A stretch of DNA of 64,000 nucleotides from Escherichia phage ST2. The notes under the pieces were generated by a model, which was not told the DNA's origin, searched no databases, and was given only the letters and a program-made list of their open reading frames with translations. The position numbers and the translations under genes are program-made. The stretch lies in sequence record OM982647; one strand, 5' to 3'. Positions 3,896 to 64,000 of this stretch are shown here, piece after piece (position 1 is the stretch's first letter; every line of letters begins with the position of its first letter).

Positions 3896-3930
3896 TGATA
3901 GTATCACACATCCATGTGTTTGTAAACTAT
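3896..3930 (-). promoter_or_regulatory. T4-type early promoter
   Basis: Minus strand GTTTACA, 18-nt spacer, GATACTAT -10. Confidence 0.5.
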
Positions 3931-11965: not shown

Positions 11966-12274
11966 TTACATAAGAAGCAAACGTTCAACCGGAGTACCAT
12001 CAACCGAAATTACTTTATCAAGGCGGAAAGAACGCCACTGACCTAACTCGGTATCGAATGCTCGAACTGATTCACGAGGTTCATAACGAACTTCTGTTGC
12101 CGGATTGTTATTTTCATATTTGACTTCAAGTTCATCGCGCGAAGCAAACATAGTGCGTACCTCGCCGTTAGCCTTTTCAAATACAACACAATGAACGCCT
12201 ACAGACAGAATAGTTTTAATACGTTCACGAAGAACCATAGTTTCTTGTTCAGTTAAAATCATATTATTCACCAC
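11966..12274 (-). CDS. Hypothetical protein (31.1/31.2 position)
   Basis: 102-aa ORF overlapping cd start region. Confidence 0.45.
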   Translation of the reverse strand: MVNNMILTEQETMVLRERIKTILSVGVHCVVFEKANGEVRTMFASRDELEVKYENNNPATEVRYEPRESVRAFDTELGQWRSFRLDKVISVDGTPVERLLLM

Positions 12275-16882: not shown

Positions 16883-17235
16883 TCTGAGAGCTTCCTGAGG
16901 TCTTCTGCAAAGGAATCGAAGGACTTGTTGATTTGTTTTTCGACCAATCCTGGTTTACTTGCCACCACGTTCTTCTTCTTCGAATCCTTACGGAGCTTTT
17001 CATTTTCGGCCTTAAGTTGGTCAACTAAAACACGGTTCTTATAAGTCATTTCTTCGATTGACTGATATTGAACCTTGAAGTCGTCTAATACTTTAGCATT
17101 GTTTTTAGCGGTCTCTTTGACAGAAGCTAATTCAGTATTCAACGAATCAACTTTGTTGTTTAAGACAACTATTGTTACCGTAGAAACTAGAGCAAAAGCT
17201 GCTACTATAGCATAAATCGGATTTACTTTAAGCAT
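16879..17235 (-). CDS. Inner-membrane spanin subunit (Rz-like)
   Basis: N-terminal TM helix then coiled-coil-rich periplasmic domain; paired with lipoprotein. Confidence 0.6.
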   Translation of the reverse strand: MLKVNPIYAIVAAFALVSTVTIVVLNNKVDSLNTELASVKETAKNNAKVLDDFKVQYQSIEEMTYKNRVLVDQLKAENEKLRKDSKKKNVVASKPGLVEKQINKSFDSFAEDLRKLSE

Positions 17236-17723
17236 GTTTTAATAATCTCAATGATTTCATCTCGGGATAATCCATTGATAAGAACGGTTTTCAAACCATC
17301 ACACTGGATTTTGTACGATTCAAACAATACACACAACTCTTCTGCTGTATGATACGGACTTGAAATTCCGAGGCGGTTGAATTTGTCGGTAAGAGGGTCG
17401 CAAATAATGTAGAATTTTATACCTGCGATATGTACGTTTGGTTGACTAATATTAATGAACACATTAGCGTCATATTTAGTCAAATTGTTTTGAAGAAATT
17501 CTACCATGGCATTAACTGCTTCCGGCATTGCTTCACGTTTCTCTTCAGCGTATCGGGTGGAATACTCTTTTTGTTTTACTTTCTTTTTAAGATTTTTGGC
17601 CAGTGTAACACGTAGGTCAGTAAGATAACCAACTGGACGTCCTTTCTTAAAGACCCGGATTCCGTCAGTTGTATCTCCAAAAGCGGTTACGACCATATCG
17701 TTAGTAATCAATTGCATATTCAT
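17223..17723 (-). CDS. alc: Alc-like transcription-termination protein for cytosine-containing DNA
   Basis: 166 aa after trimming to ATG with SD GAGGAG (track start extends through promoter); position between rnlA and pseT as in T4. Confidence 0.55.
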   Translation of the reverse strand: MNMQLITNDMVVTAFGDTTDGIRVFKKGRPVGYLTDLRVTLAKNLKKKVKQKEYSTRYAEEKREAMPEAVNAMVEFLQNNLTKYDANVFINISQPNVHIAGIKFYIICDPLTDKFNRLGISSPYHTAEELCVLFESYKIQCDGLKTVLINGLSRDEIIEIIKTCLK

Positions 17724-17749
17724 AATTTTCTCCTCGTGTTGTTGATAAA

Positions 17750-17784
17750 AGCCATAGTAACACCTTCCTTGGTGTTTGTAAACC
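17750..17784 (-). promoter_or_regulatory. T4-type early promoter
   Basis: GTTTACA then GTGTTACTATGG. Confidence 0.45.
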
Positions 17785-17785
17785 A

Positions 17786-18919
<1,134 letters not shown>

Positions 18920-18966: not shown

Positions 18967-19377
18967 CTACTTTTTCTTATGTTGGATATTCCAAGGCGGG
19001 TTGAACTTTTTGATAAAAAGCGGTTCTTCAAGGTCCATTGTTGCGATGGTCATTGAACCAAGTTCGTTGGTGACTGAAAGGTCAAAACATTGGCGGGCCC
19101 AGAATTCAACCTTTTTTCCTTGCATTAAGGCATCCAAAATCATAAGTGATTTTCTTGAATCTGAAGTCTGGTCTTTTCGATTTATGGCTGTTCGATAATA
19201 GTTAATGCGTTTCTTTAAATTCTTGGTTTTACCAATATACACAAGTTCGTCATCTATAGCAATAGCGTATATGACATTTTTCTTATTAGGGACATCAACT
19301 GTTTTAATTGTTGCATCTTCTAATAGCTCCAATTCTGTATATTTAATAAAGGAATATTCGGCGGCAATATCTTTCAT
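18967..19377 (-). CDS. denA: Endonuclease II (GIY-YIG family)
   Basis: 136 aa as in T4; GIY-YIG-like VYIGKTKNLKKRINYY; position after nrdB. Confidence 0.7.
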   Translation of the reverse strand: MKDIAAEYSFIKYTELELLEDATIKTVDVPNKKNVIYAIAIDDELVYIGKTKNLKKRINYYRTAINRKDQTSDSRKSLMILDALMQGKKVEFWARQCFDLSVTNELGSMTIATMDLEEPLFIKKFNPPWNIQHKKK

Positions 19378-45487: not shown

Positions 45488-46045
45488 TTAAAGATGAAGA
45501 TACCACCCGTTGTAGTTGCTCTTGCGGACGATTTTCTTTAGGTCTTCATGGTCTCCCACGAACTTTATAGAATAGGAGAAGACGTCAGGTGAGGTTTCTT
45601 TGACATCTAATATAATAATGCAATCTGCGACTCGATGGTTCAAGAAGGGCCCTATATTGATTCCATTACCACCAGGATAATCACCACTGTATCCTGTGGT
45701 AACCGAAATCCATTTAGAATCTATCTGGTGCGTCTTGACTTCGACACGCAACCCGCAATATTTAGGATGAGCTAACACGTCCCATGCATACGTGTACGGG
45801 TCTTCGACGTCTTCAATACCTTTATTAACATATCCGTCTAGCCAATTTGCTACTACATACTCTGCAAAGACTGCAACCTTACAACGTCGAACAACGTCTT
45901 CTTTTATTTGACCTGGATCTTGTTTCAACGAATACCGAGCAGTATCAGCGATCTTAACCTTCATTTCGCTAGTCAAAAACTCATTCGACAGGATAAATGT
46001 CGGAAGACTCTTCAGCCTCAACAGTCCCAAGTTCGTCTTTACCAT
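45488..46045 (-). CDS. denB: Endonuclease IV-like (start uncertain; 185 aa from internal ATG)
   Basis: Position between ndd and rIIB and length 185 aa as T4 DenB; track start 46096 overlaps upstream ORF. Confidence 0.45.
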   Translation of the reverse strand: MVKTNLGLLRLKSLPTFILSNEFLTSEMKVKIADTARYSLKQDPGQIKEDVVRRCKVAVFAEYVVANWLDGYVNKGIEDVEDPYTYAWDVLAHPKYCGLRVEVKTHQIDSKWISVTTGYSGDYPGGNGINIGPFLNHRVADCIIILDVKETSPDVFSYSIKFVGDHEDLKKIVRKSNYNGWYLHL

Positions 46046-46268
46046 AGATACCTCTGATGTGTAGTTCACCAAAATAAATGCGGTCACCTTCTTCAAGATA
46101 TTCTGCGTCTACAGGCGGAATTTCAATAACAACTTCGTCGCATTCTAACCAGCCGTAGTGTGCATCACCAGGATGTTTTACCAATTTAGCACAATAAACT
46201 GATTTACACTTATGATGACCACGAAGATTAGCAATTTTGGATTCTGATACGTCAAATGGATGAATCAT
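45981..46268 (-). CDS. Hypothetical protein
   Basis: 95-aa ORF. Confidence 0.4.
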   Translation of the reverse strand: MIHPFDVSESKIANLRGHHKCKSVYCAKLVKHPGDAHYGWLECDEVVIEIPPVDAEYLEEGDRIYFGELHIRGIYGKDELGTVEAEESSDIYPVE

Positions 46269-49492: not shown

Positions 49493-49693
49493 TCACAAGT
49501 TACGTTTAAAAATTTCTGCTACTTCAAGAAGTTCTTCTTTAGTAGCTGTATCGGTTTGTATTTTATATCGAATTTCTTTAAAGCGTTCTTTAAAGGCTTC
49601 AGCTGATTCGATATCAAAAAATCTTTGGATAAGACGGAATTCCCGGAGCACTGCTTTATCAAAAAGTTCCAAGTCCACGTTATATGTTCTCAT
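49493..49693 (-). CDS. Hypothetical protein (rIIA.1 position)
   Basis: 66-aa ORF. Confidence 0.45.
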   Translation of the reverse strand: MRTYNVDLELFDKAVLREFRLIQRFFDIESAEAFKERFKEIRYKIQTDTATKEELLEVAEIFKRNL

Positions 49694-49785
49694 AATATTC
49701 TCTTCAGTAGATTGCTAGGGCACTATTACTAAAGACCATATAATTTATCATCTTATATGTAATAGTGCCTCAGGCTATTCAGGAT

Positions 49786-50886
49786 TTACGCTGTGAAGAT
49801 TTTATCCCACATCGCAACAACTGCATCTCGATTATACTTCTTCCATACTGCTTCAGCACGTTTAACTCGAGCTTCGTATGTGTCAGTGAATTCTAATACA
49901 GCTTTTGTGTAAAGCGCAACTACTTCTTTCTTAGGAGTAGAGGAATCAATTTCTACACGCACAGTATCTGGGTCGTATTCGAATGTCGCATGAGGATAAT
50001 CCTTAAAAACTAACTGGATTACAGGGACACCTTTAGAGATGGCTTCAATAGAACTATTCTCTACCGTACCTGTGTCAGGACACGTATTAATAAGTGCTTT
50101 AGCTGTTTTAAGACGTTCCATGATTTCACTGTGTGGAGCATCAATAATAACAGGATATTTAGCTGGTGGTGCCCATTTGCTTGGACAATAACCAATACCA
50201 TTTTCGCCTAGTGCTTTAATCGCTTCGAGAGCAACATCAGTACGACGCATTTTAGTGTCATAACGTTGTGCACTAATAATCAGATCAGTCGCCGGAAGAA
50301 CTTCAGGTTTCTCATTCAAACAAATAACCGGATAATCTTCGGCTTCAAACAACGGATTTGCTCGCCAATAATCATAATCAATTTTGTCAGTCAGACCTGA
50401 AGTCATATAACAATATTTGCGTTCAAATTCACGGAAGGCTTTAGTAGGAGCATAACTCTTACCACCATTCTTATGAATTTGAATAGTCTGGTCCCAAATT
50501 TGAACAATGCCACGAGATACCGGTTCAAATGGTGTTGCCATAAAATTCTTATGAACTTTAGAGAGACCTGCGTCTTTAATTGCCTGAACGGTTAGTTTAG
50601 TCGGTTCCATAGTAACAACAAAATCGTATTCATGGATGCCGGCTAGTTCAACAATCTTACGAGCCATAGTATAACTCATACCTAGACTGAATTTTGTCAG
50701 ATGACCAACAGGATGGTGTGTAACTTTCCAATCACCAAACGTGTCATTATCAAAGCCGATATAATCAATATCAGCACCGATGGATACAAGATATTTCAAC
50801 ACATTTAAATGTACTGCTTCAAGACCACCTTGTACACGGTCAGGGTTAAATGGGACTGCACGAGATGGGATAAACATAACTTTCAT
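49786..50886 (-). CDS. GT-B fold glycosyltransferase-like protein (GT4-like signature)
   Basis: 366 aa; N-terminal ...RVQGGLEAVHLNVLKYL... and C-terminal ...ENSSIEAISKGVPVIQ... resemble GT-B donor-binding motifs. Confidence 0.5.
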   Translation of the reverse strand: MKVMFIPSRAVPFNPDRVQGGLEAVHLNVLKYLVSIGADIDYIGFDNDTFGDWKVTHHPVGHLTKFSLGMSYTMARKIVELAGIHEYDFVVTMEPTKLTVQAIKDAGLSKVHKNFMATPFEPVSRGIVQIWDQTIQIHKNGGKSYAPTKAFREFERKYCYMTSGLTDKIDYDYWRANPLFEAEDYPVICLNEKPEVLPATDLIISAQRYDTKMRRTDVALEAIKALGENGIGYCPSKWAPPAKYPVIIDAPHSEIMERLKTAKALINTCPDTGTVENSSIEAISKGVPVIQLVFKDYPHATFEYDPDTVRVEIDSSTPKKEVVALYTKAVLEFTDTYEARVKRAEAVWKKYNRDAVVAMWDKIFTA

Positions 50887-50912
50887 AATTAAGCCTTATT
50901 AAAATTAAAATG

Positions 50913-50930
50913 AAGCTCCCGAAGGAGCTT
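50913..50930 (-). terminator. UUCG hairpin immediately after gene 39 stop
   Basis: AAGCTCC-CGAA-GGAGCTT. Confidence 0.4.
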
Positions 50931-52746
50931 AGGACATCCATTCTTTACGAAGTTCTGAATCATCACCCATCAACATTTCAAAGAGTTCTTTCCAATTTTC
51001 AGGAAGTTTAACTACGTCGTACACAGGGTTCTGAATCATTTCACGATATTCTGACTTTTCAAGGGAGCCTAATCCCTTGATGTATCGAATACTATGCTTA
51101 GGCAGTGTATCTTTAACTTCTTCATACTCAGCTACAGTATAAAACCATTTTTGAGTTTTGCCAATTTGTGCAATAATTACAGGCGTTTTAACAAAGCGAA
51201 TACGTCCTTGTTCAAACAATTCAGGCCAATTACTAAAGAAAGCAAGCAAAGCCGGATAGATACTTCCAAGACCGTCATGATCGGCATCGGTCATAATTGC
51301 AATATTACGATAGTTCGTATTCTCTGCCTTTTCACCAAGAATAAGACCTGTGATAGCACAGATATCAAAGAGCTCTTTGTTCTTCATCATATCGGCATAT
51401 GACATACCCCAGCTATTCATCACCTTACCACGTAATGGGAATCCGCCATGTAGTTCACGGTCACGAACATCAATGAGATAACCAATTGCCGAATCACCTT
51501 CTGTTAAGAACAATGTCGTATCTGCATCTTTACCACATTGGTTAGCTTTAATATGCTTATGAACCTTAGCTTTAGTTGCCTTTTTAGCTGCTTTAGTTTC
51601 TGCAGCCTTTTCTGCTGCCAATTTACGAGCTAATGCTGCTTCAACAATAGGCATAATCAAGGCTTCGTTTTTAAGAAGTGCCTGAGCAATTTTCTTAGCA
51701 TCTAATTGGATATGATTACGAATATCACCGTACGTTGACGTTAAACGTTCTTTAGTCTGAGAATCAAAACGCATGTTGCTCATGTCTCTAATAAACATCA
51801 ACATTGTGAGGCATTCTTTAACACGAGCTTTAGTGACTTCAATACCCTTATATTTCTTTTTAATACCGGGCAAAAGATGTTCGCAGATATCATCCATTAC
51901 GCATTCAACATGATGACCACCATTTTTAGTATGGATGTTATTCACATAAGTTAAATGTCGGAAGCCATCTGGTGATGTTGTGAATGCTATAGAGACTTTA
52001 TCATTTTCTTGAATGATGTTATCTTCGCCAAATTGTTTAGCAAATCGTTTAAAATTACCATCAACCTTTTTACCATTAAATGTGAACTTGATATCAGGAT
52101 AAACGACTGCCAATGTTTGAAGTCGGTCTAAAGTAATATCTAAATAAACTTGAGATAAATTATGCTCTTCAAATGAAGAGAAATCAGGAGTGAAGATTAC
52201 TTTAGTGCCTTTACCTTTAGATTTCTTAGAAGACCATGATTTGTTTTCCATTCCATTTGAACAGTTAACAGTGATTTCATTTTCGCCATCTGACGTGATG
52301 CCTGTAAACAACGTAGAGAAGATATTAGTTAAACTACTCCCGACGCCATTCATACCACCAGTCTTGCGTTCAGAGTCATCACCAAAGTTACCACCTGCCT
52401 TTGGAATAGTCCAGGCTGCTACAGGCCCAGGAATTTGTTCACCTGTTTGGTCGGTAACTAAACCTTGAGGAATACCACGTCCGTTATCTTCCACCGAAAC
52501 TTGATTATTTTTAATTTGCACATCAATTTTATTTGCAAACTTAAATGATGTACGAATAGCTTCATCAACCGAGTTGTCAATAATCTCATCGATTAATTTA
52601 ACCAGACCAGGAACATATTCAACTTGTTGATATTTACCAAACAAAAAACGCTCGTGGGCTTCTTTAGCCGAAGAACCAATATACATACCACTACGTTTCT
52701 TAATATGTTCTACATCTGACAATACCTTAATTTCATTTTTAATCAT
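50929..52746 (-). CDS. 39: DNA topoisomerase II large subunit, unsplit (GyrB-like ATPase plus Toprim in one ORF)
   Basis: 605 aa single ORF; GHKL ATPase N-terminus; length as T2-type fused 39+60. Confidence 0.85.
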   Translation of the reverse strand: MIKNEIKVLSDVEHIKKRSGMYIGSSAKEAHERFLFGKYQQVEYVPGLVKLIDEIIDNSVDEAIRTSFKFANKIDVQIKNNQVSVEDNGRGIPQGLVTDQTGEQIPGPVAAWTIPKAGGNFGDDSERKTGGMNGVGSSLTNIFSTLFTGITSDGENEITVNCSNGMENKSWSSKKSKGKGTKVIFTPDFSSFEEHNLSQVYLDITLDRLQTLAVVYPDIKFTFNGKKVDGNFKRFAKQFGEDNIIQENDKVSIAFTTSPDGFRHLTYVNNIHTKNGGHHVECVMDDICEHLLPGIKKKYKGIEVTKARVKECLTMLMFIRDMSNMRFDSQTKERLTSTYGDIRNHIQLDAKKIAQALLKNEALIMPIVEAALARKLAAEKAAETKAAKKATKAKVHKHIKANQCGKDADTTLFLTEGDSAIGYLIDVRDRELHGGFPLRGKVMNSWGMSYADMMKNKELFDICAITGLILGEKAENTNYRNIAIMTDADHDGLGSIYPALLAFFSNWPELFEQGRIRFVKTPVIIAQIGKTQKWFYTVAEYEEVKDTLPKHSIRYIKGLGSLEKSEYREMIQNPVYDVVKLPENWKELFEMLMGDDSELRKEWMS

Positions 52747-52797
52747 GTTGTCTCCTCGTTATGAAGGTATTCTATCATCCGAAATCTAAAGCAAAAA

Positions 52798-52809
52798 GGG
52801 CCGAAGCCC
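52798..52809 (-). terminator. UUCG hairpin
   Basis: GGGC-CGAA-GCCC with flanking A/T pairs. Confidence 0.45.
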
Positions 52810-53247
52810 TTATTTAAATTTAATTTTCTGAAGTGTATCAATTGCAGCTAAACGCCCTTGTTCACTTTTAACTGTAATGACCACATCGCCTGATACAATC
52901 ACCGAACCATCAACAAATTCTATAGAGCCTTTTTTGAAATCGACAGCTGTATCTGGTTCCGGAACTTCTTCAAAGAATTTGAATTCTGCACCATAAATCA
53001 GAATATCACCTTGCATACTATGAATAGTTCGGCCATAATCGCCTACGGCTTCTACAGCAATCACTGAAACACCATAACCAATCATCTCTTCCACAATAAA
53101 ATCTTTGGACAATAAAGTAGTATGCAGATTAGTATTAAGACGTTTACCAGTCGTATTAAGAATTCTCAAGAAATTATCTTCTTGTCCTTTGATAATACGA
53201 TATTTCTTACCAACTTCAAAACCTTTAAAAGCCGTATTAAAAGCCAT
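52810..53247 (-). CDS. Hypothetical protein
   Basis: 145-aa ORF. Confidence 0.45.
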   Translation of the reverse strand: MAFNTAFKGFEVGKKYRIIKGQEDNFLRILNTTGKRLNTNLHTTLLSKDFIVEEMIGYGVSVIAVEAVGDYGRTIHSMQGDILIYGAEFKFFEEVPEPDTAVDFKKGSIEFVDGSVIVSGDVVITVKSEQGRLAAIDTLQKIKFK

Positions 53248-53249
53248 AA

Positions 53250-53429
53250 TTAACCCTTCTTAAGTAAGTCGTAAAAACCACCGTTCACATGTTTAGGAGC
53301 AGAAACCCGACGAGTAGACAGGCGATGACATTCAGGGCAAACATCGTTTTCTCGTTCAGAAATTCTTTTAATTTTTTCGTATTCATGGCCACAATCTTCA
53401 GATTGGCATTTATAGTCGTATAACGGCAT
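53250..53429 (-). CDS. Small zinc-ribbon protein (CxxC...CPxC), 59 aa (not in ORF track)
   Basis: Hand translation MPLYDYKCQSEDCGHEYEKIKRISERENDVCPECHRL... Confidence 0.45.
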   Translation of the reverse strand: MPLYDYKCQSEDCGHEYEKIKRISERENDVCPECHRLSTRRVSAPKHVNGGFYDLLKKG

Positions 53430-53431
53430 TA

Positions 53432-53842
53432 TTATTCCTTAAAATGTGCTTTCAACATTTGATACAAAGACCATGCCTGGTCATTATTTTCGATAGTAAT
53501 CGTCATCACAGGAAATTCAGTCAATTCATCAAGTTCACCAGAATCTTGCTCTTCAGACGCTTGATACGGATTTCCAACTTCGTCAAAGAACTCTGCTTCA
53601 TTCGTGGAGAGCCAGATAAAGTTTTCATCAAGGATATCACCGCCTGTTGCGTATCCAACCATGCCAGTAGATGTCACAATTTTAGTAGGACGACCAAGAT
53701 GGTCAACATCTAATACTTTAAATGGTTCCATGCCAAGACGTCGTGCATAAATCCCATTATCAGTGTGGTTTTTAATAAACTCTTCTTGGACACGTTTATC
53801 TTTAAATTGGTACCATGAGTTAACGCGGAATTTATTAGCCAT
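53432..53842 (-). CDS. Hypothetical protein (start trimmed to ATG with SD AAGGAA)
   Basis: 136 aa; track start is TTG. Confidence 0.45.
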
Positions 53843-54069
53843 TAGTAAGTTTCCTTCCAATAAGTTGTACCATTTTCAGTGATTTCACGGAAGATACCAT
53901 AGATAGGCATTTCATCACCGAGTTTTTCGTAAACGTAAACCACTTCAGTGTAGCATAAAAATTCAGTCCAGTTTTTCTGTACAACAACTAAATCAGGATT
54001 AAACAGAACATCTTCAAACTCATCGATGTTTGAATCAGTAGTTACGTTTTTAATGATTTGACGTTTCAT
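53842..54069 (-). CDS. Hypothetical protein (start trimmed to ATG with SD GAGGAG)
   Basis: 75 aa; track start runs through promoter. Confidence 0.45.
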
Positions 54070-54084
54070 AATATTCTCCTCTTG

Positions 54085-54125
54085 TTTTGATAGGTCTATA
54101 GTATCATAAACCAGAGGAGAAGTAA
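54085..54125 (-). promoter_or_regulatory. T4-type early promoter
   Basis: GTTTAC then GATACTATAGACC. Confidence 0.45.
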
Positions 54126-54131
54126 ACAACT

Positions 54132-54551
54132 TTATGCAAAAGATGCTGGACAATATTTTTTGATTTGGAACTCAGGAACTACCATGAACTGTCCAGCAAA
54201 AACAATGTTATAAAGCTTGACGCCATCTTCAACCCATTGGTCCGAAATAAAACCAGCAACTTTATTCGTTGTCCATGGAGACCCGTCAGTTGCAGCAGCA
54301 ATAGTAAATTCATGGTCTTTTACAACTAAAACAGATCTGCACAGTTTCCATTTGAACGCACGTTCTTCTGGCTCAATGAACTGGCTTGAGACGTAGCCAA
54401 TGTTGCCATCAGCATCACGAACTTTAACTTGATGTGGACTAAAGAGTCCACAACTTACAGAAAGAACTTCAACCAACTTCCCGGCAACTTTAGAGCGAGA
54501 AGCAACAGATACATATACGTAATCACCTGTAGAGAGATTTACAATATTCAT
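54132..54551 (-). CDS. Hypothetical protein, paralog 1 of tandem pair
   Basis: 139 aa; shares SRSK.AG.LVEV and GFISDQWVEDG.KLYNIVF.G.F.VV motifs with 54561..55016. Confidence 0.5.
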   Translation of the reverse strand: MNIVNLSTGDYVYVSVASRSKVAGKLVEVLSVSCGLFSPHQVKVRDADGNIGYVSSQFIEPEERAFKWKLCRSVLVVKDHEFTIAAATDGSPWTTNKVAGFISDQWVEDGVKLYNIVFAGQFMVVPEFQIKKYCPASFA

Positions 54552-54560
54552 AATAATTCC

Positions 54561-55016
54561 TTAAGCTTTAAGAGGAGACACATAGCGAGTGATTTCAGAT
54601 TCTTTAACAACTCGGAAGTCACCTAAGAATACGATATTGTATAACTTTTCACCATCTTCAACCCATTGGTCACTAATGAAGCCACACATAGTATCAGTTT
54701 TGCTTGGATAACCGTGTTCGTCGATGTAATCAAATTCTTTATCGGTTATAAATTCAACGCCTTTGCAAAGGGCCCATTTGAACTGTACATTAGGTTTGGT
54801 AGAAGCAAAATGAGCGCTCACAGGAGTTTCCAAGAATTTAGGACTTACATAAGCGAACTGAACATCTTTTTGCCCAAAGTTATGAATGATTCGAACTTTA
54901 ACTTCTTTAATGCGTCCCATGCCATTTGTGCGAAGTCCCACCACTTCAACCAATCGTCCTGCAGCTTTAGAACGAGATACAGGCGATACATACTTAATTT
55001 CACCAATAGTAATCAT
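54561..55016 (-). CDS. Hypothetical protein, paralog 2 of tandem pair
   Basis: 151 aa; see paralog 1. Confidence 0.5.
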   Translation of the reverse strand: MITIGEIKYVSPVSRSKAAGRLVEVVGLRTNGMGRIKEVKVRIIHNFGQKDVQFAYVSPKFLETPVSAHFASTKPNVQFKWALCKGVEFITDKEFDYIDEHGYPSKTDTMCGFISDQWVEDGEKLYNIVFLGDFRVVKESEITRYVSPLKA

Positions 55017-55034
55017 AATTTCTCTCTCTCTTTG

Positions 55035-55075
55035 TTTAAATTTAATTCATTATACTCCAACCATCCTTGGTTGTA
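55035..55075 (-). promoter_or_regulatory. T4-type early promoter (consensus GTTTACA-17-TATAAT)
   Basis: Spacer contains AACCA/TGGTT inverted repeat; (CT)n tract in leader. Confidence 0.55.
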
Positions 55076-55083
55076 AACTGGTT

Positions 55084-55761
55084 TTATCGCTGTTTTACAC
55101 TTAACGGGTCAGGATTCTCAGGGACATCTTCAAGGCCAAGCGCATAACGCTGAGCATATTTTAACATCAAAATATCTTTAGCACAATCATGAATACTATC
55201 ATGGGCAACGAATCCTTTTAGCGTACCCATCGGTAATGGACACATACTTAATCCTCGTGTCAACGAGTAAGCTTCGATTGCCGTACGAATATCGCGTTGA
55301 GCCCAGAATTTAACCGGTTCTAATTTATCAGTATCAATATCTGGTTCAAGAACACCTTCATCACGATAGAGGTCACGAATCAAATCGACCAAGATCGGGA
55401 AGTCAAAGCTCATACCACGGCACCACATCTGTGATTTCCATTGGTCAACTTTATTATCTCGGCAATAGTCTAAAAAGATTTTAATGCCTTCAAGCGTAGT
55501 GACATCGTCTTCAGACGGGGCCAAGTTTTTACGCGCTTCAGCCGATTGTTCTTTCCACCATTTCATAGTGGATTTAGCGAAAACTCTCTTCCCTTTCTGA
55601 GAAGCTAAATTAAATTTAATTCGCTTACCACGTTGAACAAGTTCTTCAAATGATTCAACAACTTCAGGGTCGGAATTATATGCAATAACCGCAAGGTCAA
55701 TAACGGCCGCTTTTGATGTATTGCCGAATGTTTCAAAATCTATAATAACATCAGTGCTCAT
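55084..55761 (-). CDS. dexA: Exonuclease A (DEDD 3'-5' exonuclease)
   Basis: 225 aa (T4 227); IIDFETFG motif. Confidence 0.8.
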   Translation of the reverse strand: MSTDVIIDFETFGNTSKAAVIDLAVIAYNSDPEVVESFEELVQRGKRIKFNLASQKGKRVFAKSTMKWWKEQSAEARKNLAPSEDDVTTLEGIKIFLDYCRDNKVDQWKSQMWCRGMSFDFPILVDLIRDLYRDEGVLEPDIDTDKLEPVKFWAQRDIRTAIEAYSLTRGLSMCPLPMGTLKGFVAHDSIHDCAKDILMLKYAQRYALGLEDVPENPDPLSVKQR

Positions 55762-55770
55762 AATTTTCTC

Positions 55771-57084
55771 TCAAATAAAATGGACGTCAAAACGACCACG
55801 AGTCGTGCCGACATACAATAACTGTTTAGCTAATTCTGAATCGGCATAATGGATACACGGTGTATAAACAAAGGCCGTGTCAACAGACATACCCTGGGCC
55901 TTATGGAAGGTTGATACTGGTAGCGCCTTCACCTTAGTGAACATACGTTTAGCATCCCAGAATTCGCTCCATGGAGCTTTACCACCTTTATTCCAGAATT
56001 TATATGTTTCTGCGGCCTTAGCCAAAAACAAATTGAATTTATAAAGCTCTTCTTCAGAAGAAATAACCTTTATATCTTCTCGGATGTATTCTTCATCATC
56101 CCCATATGTTTCTACTGTAAGATTCCAGTATCGTATCATATATTCGCCTGAAACGCCACGTGCTTTAACGAATGTAGACGTTTCTACAGCATCTCGAATA
56201 CGAACGAATTGCCCATTATTGAAAAGCATTTCGGTCATATTTTTACCATCTAGCTTGTACGTCTTAGTAAACGGCTCTTGTAGAACAATGACTTCGTCTT
56301 TAATAAATGGTTTTTCTGTTTCAAGAAGTTTTCGGCGAATAATTGAATTTAACTTGTCCACCGACTTATTTGTGAATGCCATCATTCGATTTTCGAAAAG
56401 GTCTTCAGGAGTTTTAACGACGTTAAAATAGTTCATCATATACGATTTAAGGTCTGTATATCCGTGAACACCGTGTCCATCAACTACTTTATCGTAAATC
56501 CATTTGCCATTACGAATATCAGTCGCAACATCAATAATTGGTGCATTGCTACGTTTAACTTCTGTAAGGTTGCATTGCACGAAGTCTTTGTGAGTGAAGA
56601 AAGGACTTAGATACGCAGTTGATTCGCCTGGGTCTACCGGACGAATCTGGCATCGGTCGCCGATTCCAATTACTGTACACCATTTAGGGATACTAGCTAA
56701 CATTATTTTAAACAGAGAACGGTCGCACATTGACGCTTCATCAAATAACAGTACACGACACAAGGCTAAGTCGGGAACCTTTTTCTGTTCAAACAATACG
56801 TTTTCTTCGTATGTAGTTGGGTTGATTTTAAGAATGCTATGAATAGTCGATGCTTCTTGGCCCGCAAGTTTGCTTAGAACCTTTTTAGCAGCATGTGTAG
56901 GGGCTGCTAAAATAATACCTGATTCTCCAGAAGAAATAAGGGCTTCAACGATGAATCTAGTAAGGGTTGTTTTACCTGTACCAGCAGGCCCATTAATAGT
57001 TACGTGATGTTTCTTTTCTTTAATAGCTTTCATAACAACGTTGAAGGCGTTTTTCTGGCCTTCAGTCAAATCATCAAATGTCAT
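55771..57084 (-). CDS. dda: Dda DNA helicase (SF1B)
   Basis: 437 aa; MTFDDLTEGQKNAFNVVMKAIKEKKHHVTINGPAGTGKTTL... near-identical to T4 Dda. Confidence 0.95.
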   Translation of the reverse strand: MTFDDLTEGQKNAFNVVMKAIKEKKHHVTINGPAGTGKTTLTRFIVEALISSGESGIILAAPTHAAKKVLSKLAGQEASTIHSILKINPTTYEENVLFEQKKVPDLALCRVLLFDEASMCDRSLFKIMLASIPKWCTVIGIGDRCQIRPVDPGESTAYLSPFFTHKDFVQCNLTEVKRSNAPIIDVATDIRNGKWIYDKVVDGHGVHGYTDLKSYMMNYFNVVKTPEDLFENRMMAFTNKSVDKLNSIIRRKLLETEKPFIKDEVIVLQEPFTKTYKLDGKNMTEMLFNNGQFVRIRDAVETSTFVKARGVSGEYMIRYWNLTVETYGDDEEYIREDIKVISSEEELYKFNLFLAKAAETYKFWNKGGKAPWSEFWDAKRMFTKVKALPVSTFHKAQGMSVDTAFVYTPCIHYADSELAKQLLYVGTTRGRFDVHFI

Positions 57085-57392
57085 CGTAAAGTCCCTGCAA
57101 TTGGAATACTAACAATACGGCCTGTGTCCAGGATTCGTTGATACAATCTTTGCGTCTCCGCATCTAGTTTAATGTGTTTCATTTCGAGCTTATTAAACCA
57201 GAACTTACGCGGAGTTTCGACCATTCTTAGAACTCCCATTTTTAAATCTGTTTTATACTGTGTTTTCAAAGTATCGAAAACTTTATCTGCAATATCCTTT
57301 CTAAAAAATACTGCAGGACGATGCTCATCAAGTGGAACCGGGACAGTAAATCCTTCCATATCTCGATAAACTATTGCATATACATAAACCAT
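57081..57392 (-). CDS. Hypothetical protein (dda.1 position)
   Basis: 103-aa ORF. Confidence 0.45.
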   Translation of the reverse strand: MVYVYAIVYRDMEGFTVPVPLDEHRPAVFFRKDIADKVFDTLKTQYKTDLKMGVLRMVETPRKFWFNKLEMKHIKLDAETQRLYQRILDTGRIVSIPIAGTLR

Positions 57393-57394
57393 AA

Positions 57395-58141
57395 TTAACC
57401 TTTAATCAGTTGGAATAATGATGCGCTAAGTGGTAAGCCACGTTTCAATTTTAATTTACCAATGAAACCAATCTTTTCAAAACGTTGCAGACCTTGGATA
57501 ACTTTATCATATGTATCGAAAAGCGATTCAGCGTCAGTTAATTTAGTTTTAGTTTTCCAGTCAGAGCCTTTAAGAAGAACGTTGAGTTTAGTAAGTTCAT
57601 GGCCTTCTGCTTGATGTGAGCCATTAATGCGTGCTTTCAAAGCAACAATTCTAAGTTTAGATTCGTTAGATAAAGGTTGATTTTTCATCATGTTTGCCAT
57701 ATGCTTAACACGATTTTCACGTTTTGCTCGGATTTTTAAAATAGTACCATAAACCTTTTTAATTTGGGCCCATTTCTTCTCGTCGAGATTAAGTTTCTCT
57801 ACTTTACGGGCAGAAGGATTAGCGATACGTCTTGCAACGGCATCACGTTTCTCAATAAGTTCTTCTAATGTTAAATCAGAACGAGCCGTGTTATATTTTT
57901 TCTTAACTGGGATGACATTACCTTTAATGTAGCCTATATCATTATTAAAACGTTCTAAGGATAATTTCTCACCTTCAACAGAGTTATTAAAAGATTCACC
58001 TGAGTAAGCGCAGACCTTTTGATCAAGAATGTTTTTAAGGTAATTAAAGTCTAAGTTAAAATCCTTAGAGCGTCTCTTCGCAGAAGCTCTGGTGTGATCA
58101 AGACGACGATTAATTTTGTTAATTTTATTATTTGATAACAT
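57395..58141 (-). CDS. Highly basic protein, possibly Srd-like
   Basis: 248 aa, K/R-rich; position between dda and mod genes as T4 srd. Confidence 0.35.
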   Translation of the reverse strand: MLSNNKINKINRRLDHTRASAKRRSKDFNLDFNYLKNILDQKVCAYSGESFNNSVEGEKLSLERFNNDIGYIKGNVIPVKKKYNTARSDLTLEELIEKRDAVARRIANPSARKVEKLNLDEKKWAQIKKVYGTILKIRAKRENRVKHMANMMKNQPLSNESKLRIVALKARINGSHQAEGHELTKLNVLLKGSDWKTKTKLTDAESLFDTYDKVIQGLQRFEKIGFIGKLKLKRGLPLSASLFQLIKG

Positions 58142-58294
58142 AATATTTTCCTCTGTCTTACGGACGTTAAGGTCATTTAGCTGATAAGCTTATAATATCA
58201 TGCCCTCAGGTAGTGTACACTCTTTTTTCATAAAATGCTTTAATTTTTTATGTGTTATAATGGTTCTGAGTTCCATCCGGTTATTCCAATTCAG

Positions 58295-58903
58295 TCAGTA
58301 ACTGACAATAGTCAGATTCCAGATTGTATAACGTCCATCTTGAATAATAGAATCTACACGCAGTGTAGTCCCTATAGGGAGCATAAATTCACATTCGTCA
58401 GATATAAGTCTAGCATTAGACCGTCTTGTCGCTTCAGGGAAAGCTCCATTGAACTCACAAGATGGCGCAGCCAGAATCATGTTAAGCATATGTTCACGGA
58501 AGTTGAAAGCAAATGGTGCATCTTTGATGCAGAACATATTAAATGTTCCGTAAAAATTATACGAAGCAAAGTTACGTGCTACACCGAACACTGGGCTGAA
58601 GCTCATTACTCTGTCAAATTTAATAATACTACCAATGCCTTTATCATCGAGTGTGGCCATAGTTTTCTTAGAGATTCCACGATACATTGTCTCAGGAACA
58701 GAAGACGACCAATTTCTACGAACAATTGCACTTAAATCTTGTTGGATGCTATCGGGCTTGTTTTCCATACACTGCCATAGTACACTTTGTTCAATGTCGC
58801 TGAATTGCTCATCGATTTTGTACTGAAGCATATCTTGATAATCCGGGCATTGAGCACGACGAACCATTTCCTCAATTTCACATTCATTATACGGCATAAA
58901 CAT
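58295..58903 (-). CDS. ModA/ModB-like ADP-ribosyltransferase, paralog 1
   Basis: 202 aa; R-S-EXE-like motifs MYRG / SFSPVFG / SDECEF; SD GGAG. Confidence 0.6.
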   Translation of the reverse strand: MFMPYNECEIEEMVRRAQCPDYQDMLQYKIDEQFSDIEQSVLWQCMENKPDSIQQDLSAIVRRNWSSSVPETMYRGISKKTMATLDDKGIGSIIKFDRVMSFSPVFGVARNFASYNFYGTFNMFCIKDAPFAFNFREHMLNMILAAPSCEFNGAFPEATRRSNARLISDECEFMLPIGTTLRVDSIIQDGRYTIWNLTIVSY

Positions 58904-58960
58904 TTATGTTTCTCCTGTGGTTGATAAAGATATAGTATCATCATCGGAAGAGTTTGTACA

Positions 58961-59542
58961 CTAAAAATTCAACATTTTCAAATGAATGATTTTGTATAAT
59001 CGAGATAAAGGGTCATATTCTAAGTCTTCAATTTCCACAATCTCAAATCTAGAGATACCTGAGACCATGTACTCTTGTTCAGATTCAATCATATCTAGGA
59101 CGTCAACACGCTTTTCTTCCATAACATGCTTAGGGTTCTTTCCGGCGAGTACAATGTTAACCATGTTTTGGTAGTAATCAAAAATGAATGGAGCATTCCT
59201 GAGACTAAGAATAGTGTACGTCTGATATTCCCATATCCCGGAGAATTGACGAGCTGTACTGAAATCAGTTGTGAACGATGTTACTCGTCCAGGAGACCAA
59301 TGGCATCCAACAGAAAGAAGGGAAAGACGTTCTGCTTCTTCTGGAGTTACACCACGGTAGAGTTCTACTGGTACTGTAGAAGTCATATGCTTACGAACAA
59401 GATGGTCTAATTCATAGTGGAAATCCGGGTCTTCCTTAGAATCGGTGCAAGCCCAGAGAATGTTTTGTTCTTGGCGGGTGAATTTGCTATCAATCAGATT
59501 TGTTAGGTATTCACGTTCTTGAAGTTCAGATTGACATGTCAT
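58961..59542 (-). CDS. ModA/ModB-like ADP-ribosyltransferase, paralog 2
   Basis: 193 aa; LYRG / SFTTDFS / ESEQEY; SD GGAGG. Confidence 0.6.
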   Translation of the reverse strand: MTCQSELQEREYLTNLIDSKFTRQEQNILWACTDSKEDPDFHYELDHLVRKHMTSTVPVELYRGVTPEEAERLSLLSVGCHWSPGRVTSFTTDFSTARQFSGIWEYQTYTILSLRNAPFIFDYYQNMVNIVLAGKNPKHVMEEKRVDVLDMIESEQEYMVSGISRFEIVEIEDLEYDPLSRLYKIIHLKMLNF

Positions 59543-59746
59543 GATAGACCTCCATTTAAAGATAAGCCTATCATAACACGAGAGGAGGGAATGTAAACTA
59601 CTTTTTAAGCTTTCCTACTAAAGGTCCATCAGGACCAGGTTGTTCTAACATGAATAAGGATGCTTTAAAAAGCAATGTCAACCCTTTCACCATTCGATAC
59701 CATGTCTCAAAGTCTTTTTCCTTGATTTCTAGTAAGAATTTCTCTT

Positions 59747-59935
59747 TCATTTCCAAGGACTCCATGGTGGTGGGTCGTCATAATAAGAGGCAAGGTCTTT
59801 CAGGGCTTCGACAGGTAAACTAAAGCCGTGTCGTTGTATAATACTATCTAGTTCATCAACAAGTTCACTACGATGCACTTTAGGAGCCTTGACTTCAGGC
59901 TCATCAAACATACTCATCAAGTCCATATTATTCAC
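59747..59935 (-). CDS. Hypothetical protein
   Basis: 62-aa ORF. Confidence 0.4.
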   Translation of the reverse strand: MNNMDLMSMFDEPEVKAPKVHRSELVDELDSIIQRHGFSLPVEALKDLASYYDDPPPWSPWK

Positions 59936-60392
59936 CGAGATAAAAACTAGCAGGTTCAGAGAACGTTTCTAGTGCTACACCTTTTGTCTTAAAAAATTTC
60001 CAAATAGCTCGTTGCAAATGGATTAAATCTGCTAATGATGTAATAAAGTATTTTTTGGCAAAATACTTGTGGTCTCGCTTTTCAAACAAGTCTAAACGCT
60101 TTTCAGGATTCACATAAACGGCATTTTCCGTAGATTCATAACCTAAGTCCTTTATGCCTTCTTCAAGACTAAACGGAGAATTTTTAGAACGAGTAATAGC
60201 TCCAACTCGCTCTACACGAATTTTGTAACCTTTAGGAATCTGTAATTTGCAGAATTCTTCTACGATATATTGCGGATTATTTAGACTTTTGTTAATGAGA
60301 ATAGCTATTTCTAGTGGAGTCTTATCTTCCACTGGTATATGTTTAAATGACTTGGCTTCAAGCAAATACATTTTAAATAGCATAGCATCCAT
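59928..60392 (-). CDS. Hypothetical protein
   Basis: 154-aa ORF. Confidence 0.45.
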   Translation of the reverse strand: MDAMLFKMYLLEAKSFKHIPVEDKTPLEIAILINKSLNNPQYIVEEFCKLQIPKGYKIRVERVGAITRSKNSPFSLEEGIKDLGYESTENAVYVNPEKRLDLFEKRDHKYFAKKYFITSLADLIHLQRAIWKFFKTKGVALETFSEPASFYLGE

Positions 60393-60567
60393 TATAATTT
60401 CCTCGATGGTTCACCCATATAAAGTTTTACAATACGTTCGCCTTCATCTTCGACGAGCTTTTCTTCATGTTTCTGGAATTCTTTAGCCATATTCTCTTCA
60501 AGAACATCCAGCCAATCTTCTGGACCGACGCCATCATTCCAGCTTTTAAACCATTTTACTATTCTGT

Positions 60568-60768
60568 TCATTCACAGCTCCCTGAGCTTGAACCACAATC
60601 AGAATAACTTGACCCAGAATCACCAGGCCAAGACGATACGTATGAATGATTATAACTTGAAGAGTTTGAAGCATTAACATGTTTTGTTTTTGGACGAACA
60701 ACTTCTTCCATCATGCCGTCACCAATGTATTCCCAACTTTTTTCGTGTGTATCAGGAATAGGCATCAT
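60568..60768 (-). CDS. Hypothetical protein with Ser-rich C-terminus (start trimmed to ATG with SD GAAGGT)
   Basis: 66 aa. Confidence 0.4.
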   Translation of the reverse strand: MMPIPDTHEKSWEYIGDGMMEEVVRPKTKHVNASNSSSYNHSYVSSWPGDSGSSYSDCGSSSGSCE

Positions 60769-60781
60769 ACCTTCGCCAGGT

Positions 60782-61078
60782 TTAGCAGCAAACAACTTCT
60801 TCAGCATCGTAAGCATTAATTGTTCCTCGAACAAAACGAACATCGCCATCATCCCAACGAATTTCGGCATTAAATTTGACGTCTTCACCATCCATCATGA
60901 ATGAGTGTACGACTACATCATCATAATATCCAAGACCGTATTTCAACGAAACTTCTTGAGCAATCAAAGCACCTAATGTGTTATTAGGTTTAATCCAACG
61001 ATTTAACATATTGTTCTCCTCTTGAGTAAGTAAGAATATCTTAACACAGTTTTTAGTGGTTGTAAACTGTAGAAACAA
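60782..61078 (-). CDS. Hypothetical protein
   Basis: 98-aa ORF. Confidence 0.45.
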   Translation of the reverse strand: MFLQFTTTKNCVKIFLLTQEENNMLNRWIKPNNTLGALIAQEVSLKYGLGYYDDVVVHSFMMDGEDVKFNAEIRWDDGDVRFVRGTINAYDAEEVVCC

Positions 61079-61084
61079 AAAAAA

Positions 61085-61104
61085 AGGAATCCCGAAGGAT
61101 TCCT
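61085..61104 (-). terminator. UUCG-tetraloop intrinsic terminator after soc
   Basis: AGGAATCC-CGAA-GGATTCCT then U10. Confidence 0.65.
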
Positions 61105-61112
61105 TAAATTAT

Positions 61113-61349
61113 TTAACCGCTTACTGGTGTAGGGGTAAACATTGCAGCATTCTTAGTTTTCCAAGTTGCTGCATCAGAAACGACATCAGAATAAGCTGCC
61201 TTTTCTGACGGAAAGATTTGATAATGAGAATCTGCAATCCGATGTTCGTTTGAATAAATCTCAAACGGTACAGAAACTTCCATACCTTTAACTTCTTTGC
61301 CTTCACCAGCCGGACGTGTAAAGGTTTTGATATTAACGTAACCACCCAT
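61113..61349 (-). CDS. soc: Small outer capsid protein
   Basis: 78 aa; GYVNIKTF...HYQIFPSEKAAYS as T4 Soc. Confidence 0.85.
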   Translation of the reverse strand: MGGYVNIKTFTRPAGEGKEVKGMEVSVPFEIYSNEHRIADSHYQIFPSEKAAYSDVVSDAATWKTKNAAMFTPTPVSG

Positions 61350-61380
61350 AATTAACTCCTTTGTTGTTTAATTACAGGTG

Positions 61381-61388
61381 TATTTATA
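61381..61388 (-). promoter_or_regulatory. Late promoter TATAAATA for soc
   Basis: Exact TATAAATA on minus strand 32 nt upstream of soc ATG. Confidence 0.6.
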
Positions 61389-61394
61389 ACTTAA

Positions 61395-61916
61395 TCAGTA
61401 ACCATTATCCTGACGTTCAAAGTTGTGTTGGTTTTTCAAGTAGTAAAGTTTAAAGATTTCTTCAGCAGAAAGACCCAGACCTTGGAACATATTTAGAACG
61501 AAATGCAGAATATCAATCATTTCAAATTTAATTTCAAGTTGGTCTTCAGGAGACAGTTCATCGATACGACGATTTCGATATTCAGCATGTTGTGCTTTCC
61601 ATGGCTTCCAAACACTGCTAGCGGCTTTCTCACCATTGCTCATACCGCCAAGTGAAGTCAACAGTTCACGGAATTCATCATCAATATAATCTTTCTGATT
61701 ACGCAGCCAATCAACAACATCGCCAGCAGTGGCCAATTCATCAGGATGTTTGTTATGTTCAGGCTTGTCATTTGCCAGACGAACCTGTAAAGATTTCTGC
61801 ATATCAAGCATTACCTGCAGTGGGTCTTTATCTTCGTGAATCAGAGCATTAAAATAAGCTTCTTCTGCTTTATCAACACCAGAAATAAGTTGTGAACATT
61901 CGTTAAAGTGTGCCAT
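61395..61916 (-). CDS. 56: dCTPase / dCTP pyrophosphatase
   Basis: MAHFNEC... start with SD AAGGA; ...PLQVMLDMQ...IDDEFRELLTSLG...EIFKLYYLKN as T4 gp56. Confidence 0.85.
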   Translation of the reverse strand: MAHFNECSQLISGVDKAEEAYFNALIHEDKDPLQVMLDMQKSLQVRLANDKPEHNKHPDELATAGDVVDWLRNQKDYIDDEFRELLTSLGGMSNGEKAASSVWKPWKAQHAEYRNRRIDELSPEDQLEIKFEMIDILHFVLNMFQGLGLSAEEIFKLYYLKNQHNFERQDNGY

Positions 61917-62005
61917 TATTTTTCCTTTCAATTCAGTATAAGAGAGTTAATTCTAACATTAATTTTATAAAGCGTAATAAATAATAAGGTAACTAAGGAG
62001 ATATT

Positions 62006-62203
62006 ATGTTTAAACTTCCATCGTTAATCAACGCTATTAAAGGCAATAAAAAGAAAACTGCTATCGCCGCAATAGTTGTAGGTGGCATTATTTCATGGAA
62101 CTTCGGTATCGCACCATTATTAGTTGCTAATGGTATTATAGTTCCTTCTGTTCCATTGGATACTGTAGTTGATTTGGCCTTTGCTTTAGTTGGGCTTGTT
62201 TAA
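62006..62203 (+). CDS. Small hydrophobic protein on opposite strand, 65 aa
   Basis: Strong SD AAGGAG 7 nt before ATG; two hydrophobic segments; stop overlaps gene 61 stop. Confidence 0.45.
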   Translation: MFKLPSLINAIKGNKKKTAIAAIVVGGIISWNFGIAPLLVANGIIVPSVPLDTVVDLAFALVGLV

Positions 62204-63222
62204 ATCTTAGAATAATGAGATAATCTCATTTTAGCATGCAACCCACTTGAAATATTCTGTTTCATATATTCTAAAATTTCTTGTGGTGTTGCATTTTCTT
62301 TCATTACCATATCATTCACATCCTTTGATCTCCATGGAGCTCGATCCCAGAACATGACACGTTCGCCTGCATCAACTAATCGCTTCATACGAGCTATAGT
62401 ATCCGGATGCCTAGGTTCATTATCCATTACCCATACCCGACGTTCTTTAAATGGTACCACATCTAAATCTATTGAGCCGCCTGTAATAGCGATTGCGTTT
62501 GGTATGAATAAACTATCAATAGGACCTTCCATTACCCAGACGTCCCCTTCCTTAACACGTTCAACACCATAAATTTTTGTTGCAGACTCAAACGCTTTAA
62601 TAGTGATATATTTCTGAGGAGCATCTTTACGAAGTGCACGTCCTTGGAACGACTCGGCCTTCCCATCTTTATTAAAAATAGGAATCACTAAACGCGGTTC
62701 AGGAATCTCTTTCTTATACGTACCCGGTTGAATCTTGTTGACCAATTTGGGCCATTCTAATGTGAACCATAATCTGTTCCATGATTCTTTAGGAATACAC
62801 CGAGACTTAACATATTTCACAATAGGATGCTCTTCAGGCAACTTGTCTAGACGAGAACAAGACGGCAAAGAATTTATAGTCTTTTTCTCTGGCTCCGGTT
62901 TAGCTTCAGGAACCTTTTCAATCTTTGGTTCCATTCTAGCTTTTTCTTTACGAACTTCCATTAGATATTCGCGATAAAGCTCTTCATCATACTCTTTTAA
63001 GTATCCGGAAATTGTATTGTGGTATTGACAGTTATAGCAATGCACATTACCAGGAGTACCGCCATAATACCATCCGCGAGCTTTCATTGCATCTGTCTGG
63101 GAGTCGCCACAAACTGGACATCGAAATGTTAATTTAAATGTGCTTGAATTATTGATTTGTCTAAAACGAGGTAGGTGAGAAAACGCACGATAAGCAAATT
63201 CATTATCTATCCATTCAGCCAT
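62200..63222 (-). CDS. 61: DNA primase
   Basis: 340 aa from ATG with SD GGAGAA; WIDNEFAYRA...FRCPVCGDSQTD...HCYNCQYH zinc-binding domain as T4 gp61. Confidence 0.9.
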   Translation of the reverse strand: MAEWIDNEFAYRAFSHLPRFRQINNSSTFKLTFRCPVCGDSQTDAMKARGWYYGGTPGNVHCYNCQYHNTISGYLKEYDEELYREYLMEVRKEKARMEPKIEKVPEAKPEPEKKTINSLPSCSRLDKLPEEHPIVKYVKSRCIPKESWNRLWFTLEWPKLVNKIQPGTYKKEIPEPRLVIPIFNKDGKAESFQGRALRKDAPQKYITIKAFESATKIYGVERVKEGDVWVMEGPIDSLFIPNAIAITGGSIDLDVVPFKERRVWVMDNEPRHPDTIARMKRLVDAGERVMFWDRAPWRSKDVNDMVMKENATPQEILEYMKQNISSGLHAKMRLSHYSKI

Positions 63223-63262
63223 AGTATTCTCCAGAGGCCTTAAATTAATAAGGCCCATCTTA

Positions 63263-63757
63263 TCACAACTTATTAATATTTACTTTAATTCGCTTTCTTT
63301 TCTTGGAAGGAATTTGTTCGGGACCTTTATTTACGACTGCACCTGTAGTTGTTCCTGATGCAATAGCTTGAGGGCTGCCACCTGAATCGCCAGCAACCAT
63401 ATCCTCAAATAAAGGGAGCTCTTTAAATATTTCTTTCTGTTGTTCTTCCGTAATGTTATAGCGTGAAGCTACAGCACTCCAGGCAGACATCATTGAGGCC
63501 ATTCCATTAAGACCCGGAACAGTGCTCATCATTCGCTTCATTGAACGAACTGAAGCATGAAAAGGTGTATACGCCGCTTTTTCTTCGGGAGTAGAAGGAC
63601 GTTTAAGAACACTTCCACGTTCATCGATGATTTTGGCGTCGTATGCTTTCCATTCGGTAAAAGGTTTTTGCATTAGTCGAATAAACTTATATGCGTAAAC
63701 AGAATCTATTGCAGTGTTAATAATACCCATAGGTACCTCCTGAGTATATTTAATCAA
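63263..63757 (-). CDS. Hypothetical protein (61.1 position)
   Basis: 164-aa ORF. Confidence 0.45.
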   Translation of the reverse strand: MIKYTQEVPMGIINTAIDSVYAYKFIRLMQKPFTEWKAYDAKIIDERGSVLKRPSTPEEKAAYTPFHASVRSMKRMMSTVPGLNGMASMMSAWSAVASRYNITEEQQKEIFKELPLFEDMVAGDSGGSPQAIASGTTTGAVVNKGPEQIPSKKRKRIKVNINKL

Positions 63758-63947
63758 TTACAAAGATTGCTTTGTCACCATTTATATCTGTGACTTCATA
63801 CGTAGTGCCTTCATACTGTGGAATATTCCAAATTACACCATCATTAGCTTTTACGCTAATATGGCATTGGTGTTTTGAAACAACTTCATAATCTTCAAAA
63901 CTTGTAAAAACACTAATTTTAGAACCAGTGCAAATTGCAGTAGTCAT
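63750..63947 (-). CDS. Hypothetical protein
   Basis: 65-aa ORF. Confidence 0.4.
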   Translation of the reverse strand: MTTAICTGSKISVFTSFEDYEVVSKHQCHISVKANDGVIWNIPQYEGTTYEVTDINGDKAIFVID

Positions 63948-64000
63948 TTTAACCTCGATTCATAAATGCATTAAATATTTGGTCATCAACAGAAATTTCT

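Follow-up and report, generated by a model that had tools for sequence, protein, structure and literature searches.

DNA arabinosylation in RB69-type phages

Arabinose was identified in the DNA of phage RB69 by Thomas et al. 2018, who used HMM and HHpred comparisons to propose ORF003c as a GT-B arabinosyltransferase and singled out Gly-20, Arg-207 and Glu-281 of the protein; this proposal dates from a time when the RB69 base was taken for hmC (PMC6024577). The chemistry of RB69 DNA has since been demonstrated by Lee et al. 2026, with cytosine fully replaced by mono- and di-arabinosylated 5-hydroxycytosine and the di-arabinosylated base having the structure beta-D-Araf-(1->3)-alpha-D-Araf-O5-dC (PMC13326640). 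In this pathway, 5-hydroxy-dCMP comes from a flavin-dependent thymidylate-synthase homolog, RB69 gp46:47 is listed as arabinosyltransferase 1 and gp3 as 'beta-arabinosyltransferase 2', an entry that carries no experimental-confirmation mark (PMC13326640). The accessible literature contains no biochemical assay of the RB69-type enzyme itself. For phage DLP3 an activity has been demonstrated: gp76 and gp77, which are inactive singly and both needed, jointly add a third arabinose from UDP-Araf onto RB69 DNA in vitro (PMC13326640).

Which of the restriction, CRISPR and glycosylase defences a T4-like phage can evade is decided by the sugars on its cytosines, and a gene that sets the length of the glycan would help to predict the host range of therapeutic Mosigvirus phages. 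Deletion of an Aat in the Mosigvirus Bas46 causes sensitivity to a defence system, according to PMC13216743, citing Mahler 2025. The gene considered here is already known: it was proposed in 2018, a crystal structure with UDP was released in 2025 and the pathway was assigned in 2025-26, with the assignment of the RB69 gp3 type as a DNA arabinosyltransferase found in PMC6024577, PMC13326640 and PMC13390438.

The locus between rIIA.1 and 60+39

The window, i.e. the whole 64-kb stretch of DNA that was analysed, comes from an RB69-like Mosigvirus of the T4 type. A first-pass annotation had described a 366-aa ORF with GT-B (GT4-like) features between rIIA.1 and gene 39, and had suggested that it could be a DNA sugar transferase distinct from the glucosyltransferases of T4. 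Both motifs that it quoted are present in the protein (DRVQGGLEAVHLNVLKYL and VENSSIEAISKGVPVIQ), and the gene lies where it was placed, gene 39 being the fused 60+39. The features of the region are as follows.

49493..49693, minus strand: rIIA.1, 66 aa, downstream of the glycosyltransferase ORF
49719..49769, minus strand: perfect 11-nt inverted repeat GGCACTATTAC / GTAATAGTGCC with a 29-nt AT-rich loop (repeat search)
49786..50886, minus strand: glycosyltransferase ORF, 366 aa, ATG start; proposed DNA beta-arabinofuranosyltransferase 2, ortholog of RB69ORF003c/gp3
50894..50897, minus strand: Shine-Dalgarno-like AAGG, 7 nt 5' of the glycosyltransferase ATG (read directly from the sequence)
50913..50930, minus strand: GC-rich UUCG-tetraloop hairpin AAGCTCC-TTCG-GGAGCTT with a T-rich tract, at the 60+39 stop codon and overlapping it (terminator-like scan)
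50929..52746, minus strand: fused 60+39 topoisomerase subunit, 605 aa, upstream of the glycosyltransferase ORF
52769..52793, minus strand: MotA-box middle-promoter consensus TGCTTTA-N12-TAGAAT, just upstream of 60+39 (pattern search)
52796..52811: GC-rich UUCG/GAAG tetraloop hairpin, directly upstream of 60+39, then the MotA box
62200..63258: primase gp61 (comparison with RB69)

The gene for the topoisomerase II large subunit is a single fused ORF, as in RB69, whereas T4 has a split gene 60; the T4 gene 60 split, its 50-nt translational bypass and the mobA insertion are thus all absent. The statement in the first-pass annotation that T4 has no glycosyltransferase here was accurate, since the T4 junction carries 60, 60.1 and a mobA pseudogene. 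The GC content of the ORF (0.38-0.40) equals that of the adjoining genes, and recent horizontal acquisition was rejected on this match in composition. Plus-strand ORFs of 40-50 aa within the gene show no conservation and were set aside as spurious.

No sigma-70-like promoter was found on the minus strand in the 42-nt gap between 39 and the ORF, which holds only the UUCG hairpin, a candidate terminator-like or mRNA-stabilising element. As there is no promoter consensus between the two genes, they probably share a transcript, and its probable source, judging from the sequence, is the MotA box upstream of 60+39; the MotA-box pattern has 12 matches in the 64-kb window against 2.55 expected. Expression of the glycosyltransferase is probably prereplicative, with early or middle co-transcription with gene 39 suggested by this arrangement. 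On the other side, the 11-nt inverted repeat lies in the 92-nt gap from the ORF stop to the rIIA.1 start, has an RNA fold of -25.2 kcal/mol (z = -3.55) and may serve as a terminator, as a site of processing or in the regulation of rIIA.1/rIIA.

Other genes that had been cited as implying modified cytosine were located in the window, viz. an NTP pyrophosphohydrolase of dCTPase type (61395..61931), Alc (17223..17786), a DenA-type endonuclease (18967..19377) and DenB (45488..46096). The modified base is arabinosylated 5-hydroxycytosine and no T4-like hydroxymethylcytosine derivative. In the source phage the ORF and the dCTPase gene (within 51000..64000) are ~1.3 kb closer together than in RB69, so some small RB69 early-region ORFs are missing or have been replaced. 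The window also encodes a 695-aa Alt-like protein with an ADP-ribosyltransferase exoenzyme domain (3927..6014, minus strand), and from RB69 synteny ModA/ModB-type genes are expected at ~58.3-59.5 kb, which with the Alt-like gene would complete the ADP-ribosylation set usual for T4. Neither tRNAs nor Rfam families were detected anywhere in the 64-kb window.

A DAHP synthase gene of the AroFGH type (12845..13837, minus strand) lies beside the dCMP deaminase gene (12264..12845), scoring 253 bits against Pfam DAHP_synth_1 and 428 bits against TIGR00034, for which the cutoff is 173. By tblastn it occurs in 212 phage records, from Escherichia/Mosigvirus, Klebsiella (25), Proteus (7), Serratia (6), Enterobacter and Edwardsiella phages, a genus list that closely resembles that of the first-arabinosyltransferase family described below. 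Either common descent or a metabolic connection to the drain on pentose phosphates by the arabinose pathway could explain this co-distribution; the DAHP synthase is unmentioned in the arabinosylation paper (PMC13326640).

Family membership and fold

A tblastn survey with the glycosyltransferase protein found homologs in 211 of 50,697 phage records. Escherichia and Shigella phages of the genus Mosigvirus account for 155 records, at 95% protein identity or more, and 55 Acinetobacter phage records carry two copies each at ~43% identity. This distribution, together with 64 invariant columns in an alignment of 12 family members, means that the ORF is a real gene and no chance reading frame. The protein of phage vB_EQ1 is 100% identical, and RB69ORF003c is 99.2% identical and has the same map position; by sequence identity and gene order (rIIA.1 / ORF / 60+39), the ORF is the ortholog of RB69 ORF003c/gp3, a glycosyltransferase already described, and for practical purposes the same protein. 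The family is a very small one: in a set of 5.8 billion proteins it makes up 12 clusters at the 90% identity level, and its profile finds only 21 representatives at E<=1e-3 among 1.84 billion. Existing classifications say little of its function: the ORF finds no family in Pfam or NCBIfam even at E<=10, PHROGs assigns it to phrog_8302 ('unknown function') and one GenBank record labels a homolog phosphatidylinositol mannosyltransferase.

A search of PDB sequences returned a single match, 9iqz/9ir0 (E 6e-251, ~99% identity over the full length), which is the glycosyltransferase of phage HY126 in its apo form (9IQZ) and with UDP (9IR0); the title of 9ir0 implies UDP binding in this 99%-identical ortholog. 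Four conservative changes separate the two proteins (Y160H, G164A, I231V and S315F, HY126 residue last), none at a family-invariant column. Structure prediction with AF2 was based on the 12-sequence alignment (pLDDT 88.8), a single-sequence model (pLDDT 38) having been discarded. The HY126 enzyme is the best fold match (TM 0.95), with GT4 enzymes next, and the best non-self matches are BGluT, PimA, BshA, BA1558, MshA and WaaG. The fold is thereby established as GT-B and GT4-like, with two Rossmann-like beta/alpha/beta domains and a cleft between them, the GT-B hallmark. The GT-B (GT4-like) features first noticed in the sequence thus agree with both the AF2 model and the solved HY126 structure.

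By sequence, the relationship to GT4 is an indirect one. The ORF itself does not reach the curated HMM thresholds for CAZy GT4 or for Pfam Glyco_transf_4 and Glycos_transf_1, and because the family alignment, used as a profile against PDB sequences, finds only 9iqz/9ir0, the GT4 link is not obtainable by sequence against the PDB. It is instead transitive: the family profile reaches P0020, P0023, P0024, P0026 and P0029 (E 3e-11 to 4e-4), each of which scores above the gathering score of PF13439 or PF00534, and the representatives that pass the Glyco_transf_4 or Glycos_transf_1 thresholds are the most distant members of the family. The hallmark of GT4 is a C-terminal E-x7-E motif; in the phage family the invariant glutamates E276 and E281 are spaced as E-x4-E (TGTVENSSIEAI). 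A comparison with the T4 glucosyltransferases, which had been recommended for this gene, found no sequence homology of the family to either the alpha- (GT72) or the beta-enzyme (GT63) when the family profile was aligned with hhalign to a single sequence of each, a weak test. A DNA sugar transferase distinct from those of T4, as first suggested, is supported by the fold, the cluster linkage of homologs and the literature, in which the idea is not new.

The arabinose proposed to be added by the ORF enzyme

Considering which sugar the enzyme adds, the distribution of its family relative to the arabinosylation genes is informative. The arabinosylation cluster of the source phage lies outside the 64-kb window; that of RB69 is at 24.0-30.6 kb, ~21 kb from ORF003c, so that the Mosigvirus gene is detached from it and occupies a locus that shows plasticity in T4 as well. 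In Acinetobacter phage Berthold, two full-length homologs (43% and 40% identity) stand in tandem at the end of a cluster encoding an arabinose-5-P isomerase, a bifunctional NDP-sugar pyrophosphorylase/kinase, a phosphatase, a ThyA-like synthase, the first transferase and a kinase, and a metagenomic T4-like contig, L008, has a single 36%-identical copy in its cluster, between a kinase-like gene and uvsX. The family thus occurs with the 5hodCMP synthase, UDP-Araf synthesis genes and the first transferase in RB69, Berthold and L008 alike. The first transferase, whose gene always adjoins the 5hodCMP synthase gene, has no detectable sequence relation to the ORF (BLASTP E 1.2; hhalign probability 0.3%, a weak test of a profile against a single sequence). 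Its family is found in 348 phage records compared to 211 for the ORF family, and includes phages of Klebsiella, Serratia, Enterobacter, Proteus, Yersinia, Edwardsiella and Shewanella, for none of which a homolog of the ORF was found among the 50,697 records. Among Mosigvirus records, 155 have the ORF and 153 the first transferase, both at 95% identity or more.

The number of arabinoses reported for these phages tracks the number of ORF-family copies. Lineages with none include the mono-arabinosylated Thanatos and phages that share a host with the mono-arabinosylated LC53, Mosigvirus combines one copy with a di-arabinosylated base, and in the DLP3-type Acinetobacter phages two copies go with a tri-arabinosylated base. 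In a neighbour-joining tree the two Acinetobacter paralog types group together (54-57% mutual identity) with the Mosigvirus protein outside, which indicates that the Acinetobacter duplication is lineage-specific and that both paralogs are co-orthologs of the Mosigvirus enzyme. A side observation from the tree is that P0007, from the record 'Tegunavirus sp. BRC001', is 84-87% identical to the Acinetobacter 074-type paralog and groups inside that clade; the genus label of this record looks doubtful.

The ORF product is most likely the second sugar transferase, which places arabinose onto arabinose, rather than the one that glycosylates the base in the first place. That it carries out the mono- to di-arabinosylation step is suggested by the phyletic and synteny evidence, in agreement with the published proposal, and we regard it as quite probable that it is a UDP-Araf-dependent transferase adding the second arabinose to phage DNA. 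In the proposed mechanism, cytosine in the phage DNA would be replaced by 5-hydroxycytosine and a different, unrelated enzyme of the RB69 gp46:47 type, encoded outside the window, would put alpha-D-arabinofuranose on the 5-OH. After replication, the ORF enzyme would then move a second arabinofuranose from UDP-Araf to O3 of the first, giving beta-D-Araf-(1->3)-alpha-D-Araf-5-hydroxy-dC, the base of RB69-type virions, and the bulkier sugar chain may widen protection from DNA-targeting host defences.

Other roles have to be weighed against this one. Addition of the first arabinose to the modified cytosine, as originally proposed in 2018 by Thomas et al. from the HMM/HHpred similarity of ORF003c to GT-B enzymes (PMC6024577), would fit the GT-B fold and UDP binding equally well. 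It is nevertheless very unlikely, given that more than 130 arabinosylating T4-like records (the Klebsiella, Serratia, Enterobacter, Proteus, Shewanella Thanatos and JS98-like lineages) have the other transferase family beside the 5hodCMP synthase and no homolog of the ORF, that the reported mono-arabinosylated phages fall within this group, and that elsewhere, in the Acinetobacter-phage and L008 lineages, the ORF family is always additional to the first-transferase family. An enzyme acting on a glycolipid of the host envelope, on a protein of the phage or on some other non-DNA acceptor might be imagined from the GenBank label mentioned above and from the top non-phage fold matches, which are lipid, small-molecule and polysaccharide GT4 enzymes (PimA, BshA, WaaG and sucrose-phosphate synthase). 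Identity to these cellular enzymes is, however, only 10-15%, in two other lineages the homologs sit within the DNA-arabinosylation cluster, only phages that poly-arabinosylate their DNA have the family and the DLP3 homologs work on DNA in vitro (PMC13326640), all of which leaves a non-DNA acceptor scarcely credible.

A closer variant is an enzyme that is active only in a complex, either a homo-oligomer or one with the first transferase, and that is not strictly specific for one step. The behaviour of DLP3 gp76 and gp77, inactive singly and active together (PMC13326640), is in favour of this, and the co-requirement indicates that 'one enzyme, one sugar' may be too simple; the 9iqz entry also has a chain H, hence several copies in the crystal. 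Yet Mosigviruses and contig L008 have a single family copy, and since the Acinetobacter paralogs derive from a lineage-specific duplication, dependence on a heteromer cannot be ancestral, so that we consider such a subunit role improbable.

Returning to the second-sugar transferase, two further readings concern the copy number and the stereochemistry. The product linkage in RB69 DNA is beta-Araf-(1->3), the first and second RB69 linkages differ in anomeric configuration and the nearest structural relatives are retaining enzymes. The first is that copy number predicts glycan length from the genome, the number of arabinoses being one plus the number of family copies, and the second that the beta linkage arises by retention from beta-configured UDP-D-Araf; both are offered tentatively and are somewhat doubtful. 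If the copy rule were true, uncultured lineages of the L008 type would be di-arabinosylated, and the records without the family, over 130 of the JS98, Klebsiella, Enterobacter and Serratia types, would be mono-arabinosylated. If the ORF enzyme retains, the unrelated first transferase would be an inverting one; if the donor is alpha-configured, the ORF enzyme would itself be an inverting enzyme with a GT4-like fold.

To the published assignment the present comparison makes modest additions, viz. independent comparative support for the second-sugar role and the lineage-specific duplication in Acinetobacter phages. Relative to RB69 gp46:47, DLP3 gp79 and Berthold_077, which are the proposed first, alpha-arabinosyltransferases, the enzyme belongs to the same pathway and presumably uses the same donor. 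The cellular GT4-type GT-B enzymes (PimA, BshA, MshA, WaaG and sucrose-phosphate synthase) share only the 10-15% identity given above and have E-x7-E motifs, whereas the phage enzyme has E-x4-E, lacks a direct Pfam/NCBIfam match and, unlike them, has a sugar on DNA as its proposed acceptor. DLP3 gp77 and gp76, the equivalents of Berthold_075 and _074 and the arabinosyltransferases for the second and third sugar, are of the same family (43% and 40% identity) and share the conserved G-G, R, R, E and E residues; these Acinetobacter paralogs are a tandem pair inside the cluster, whereas the Mosigvirus gene is single-copy and lies outside it.
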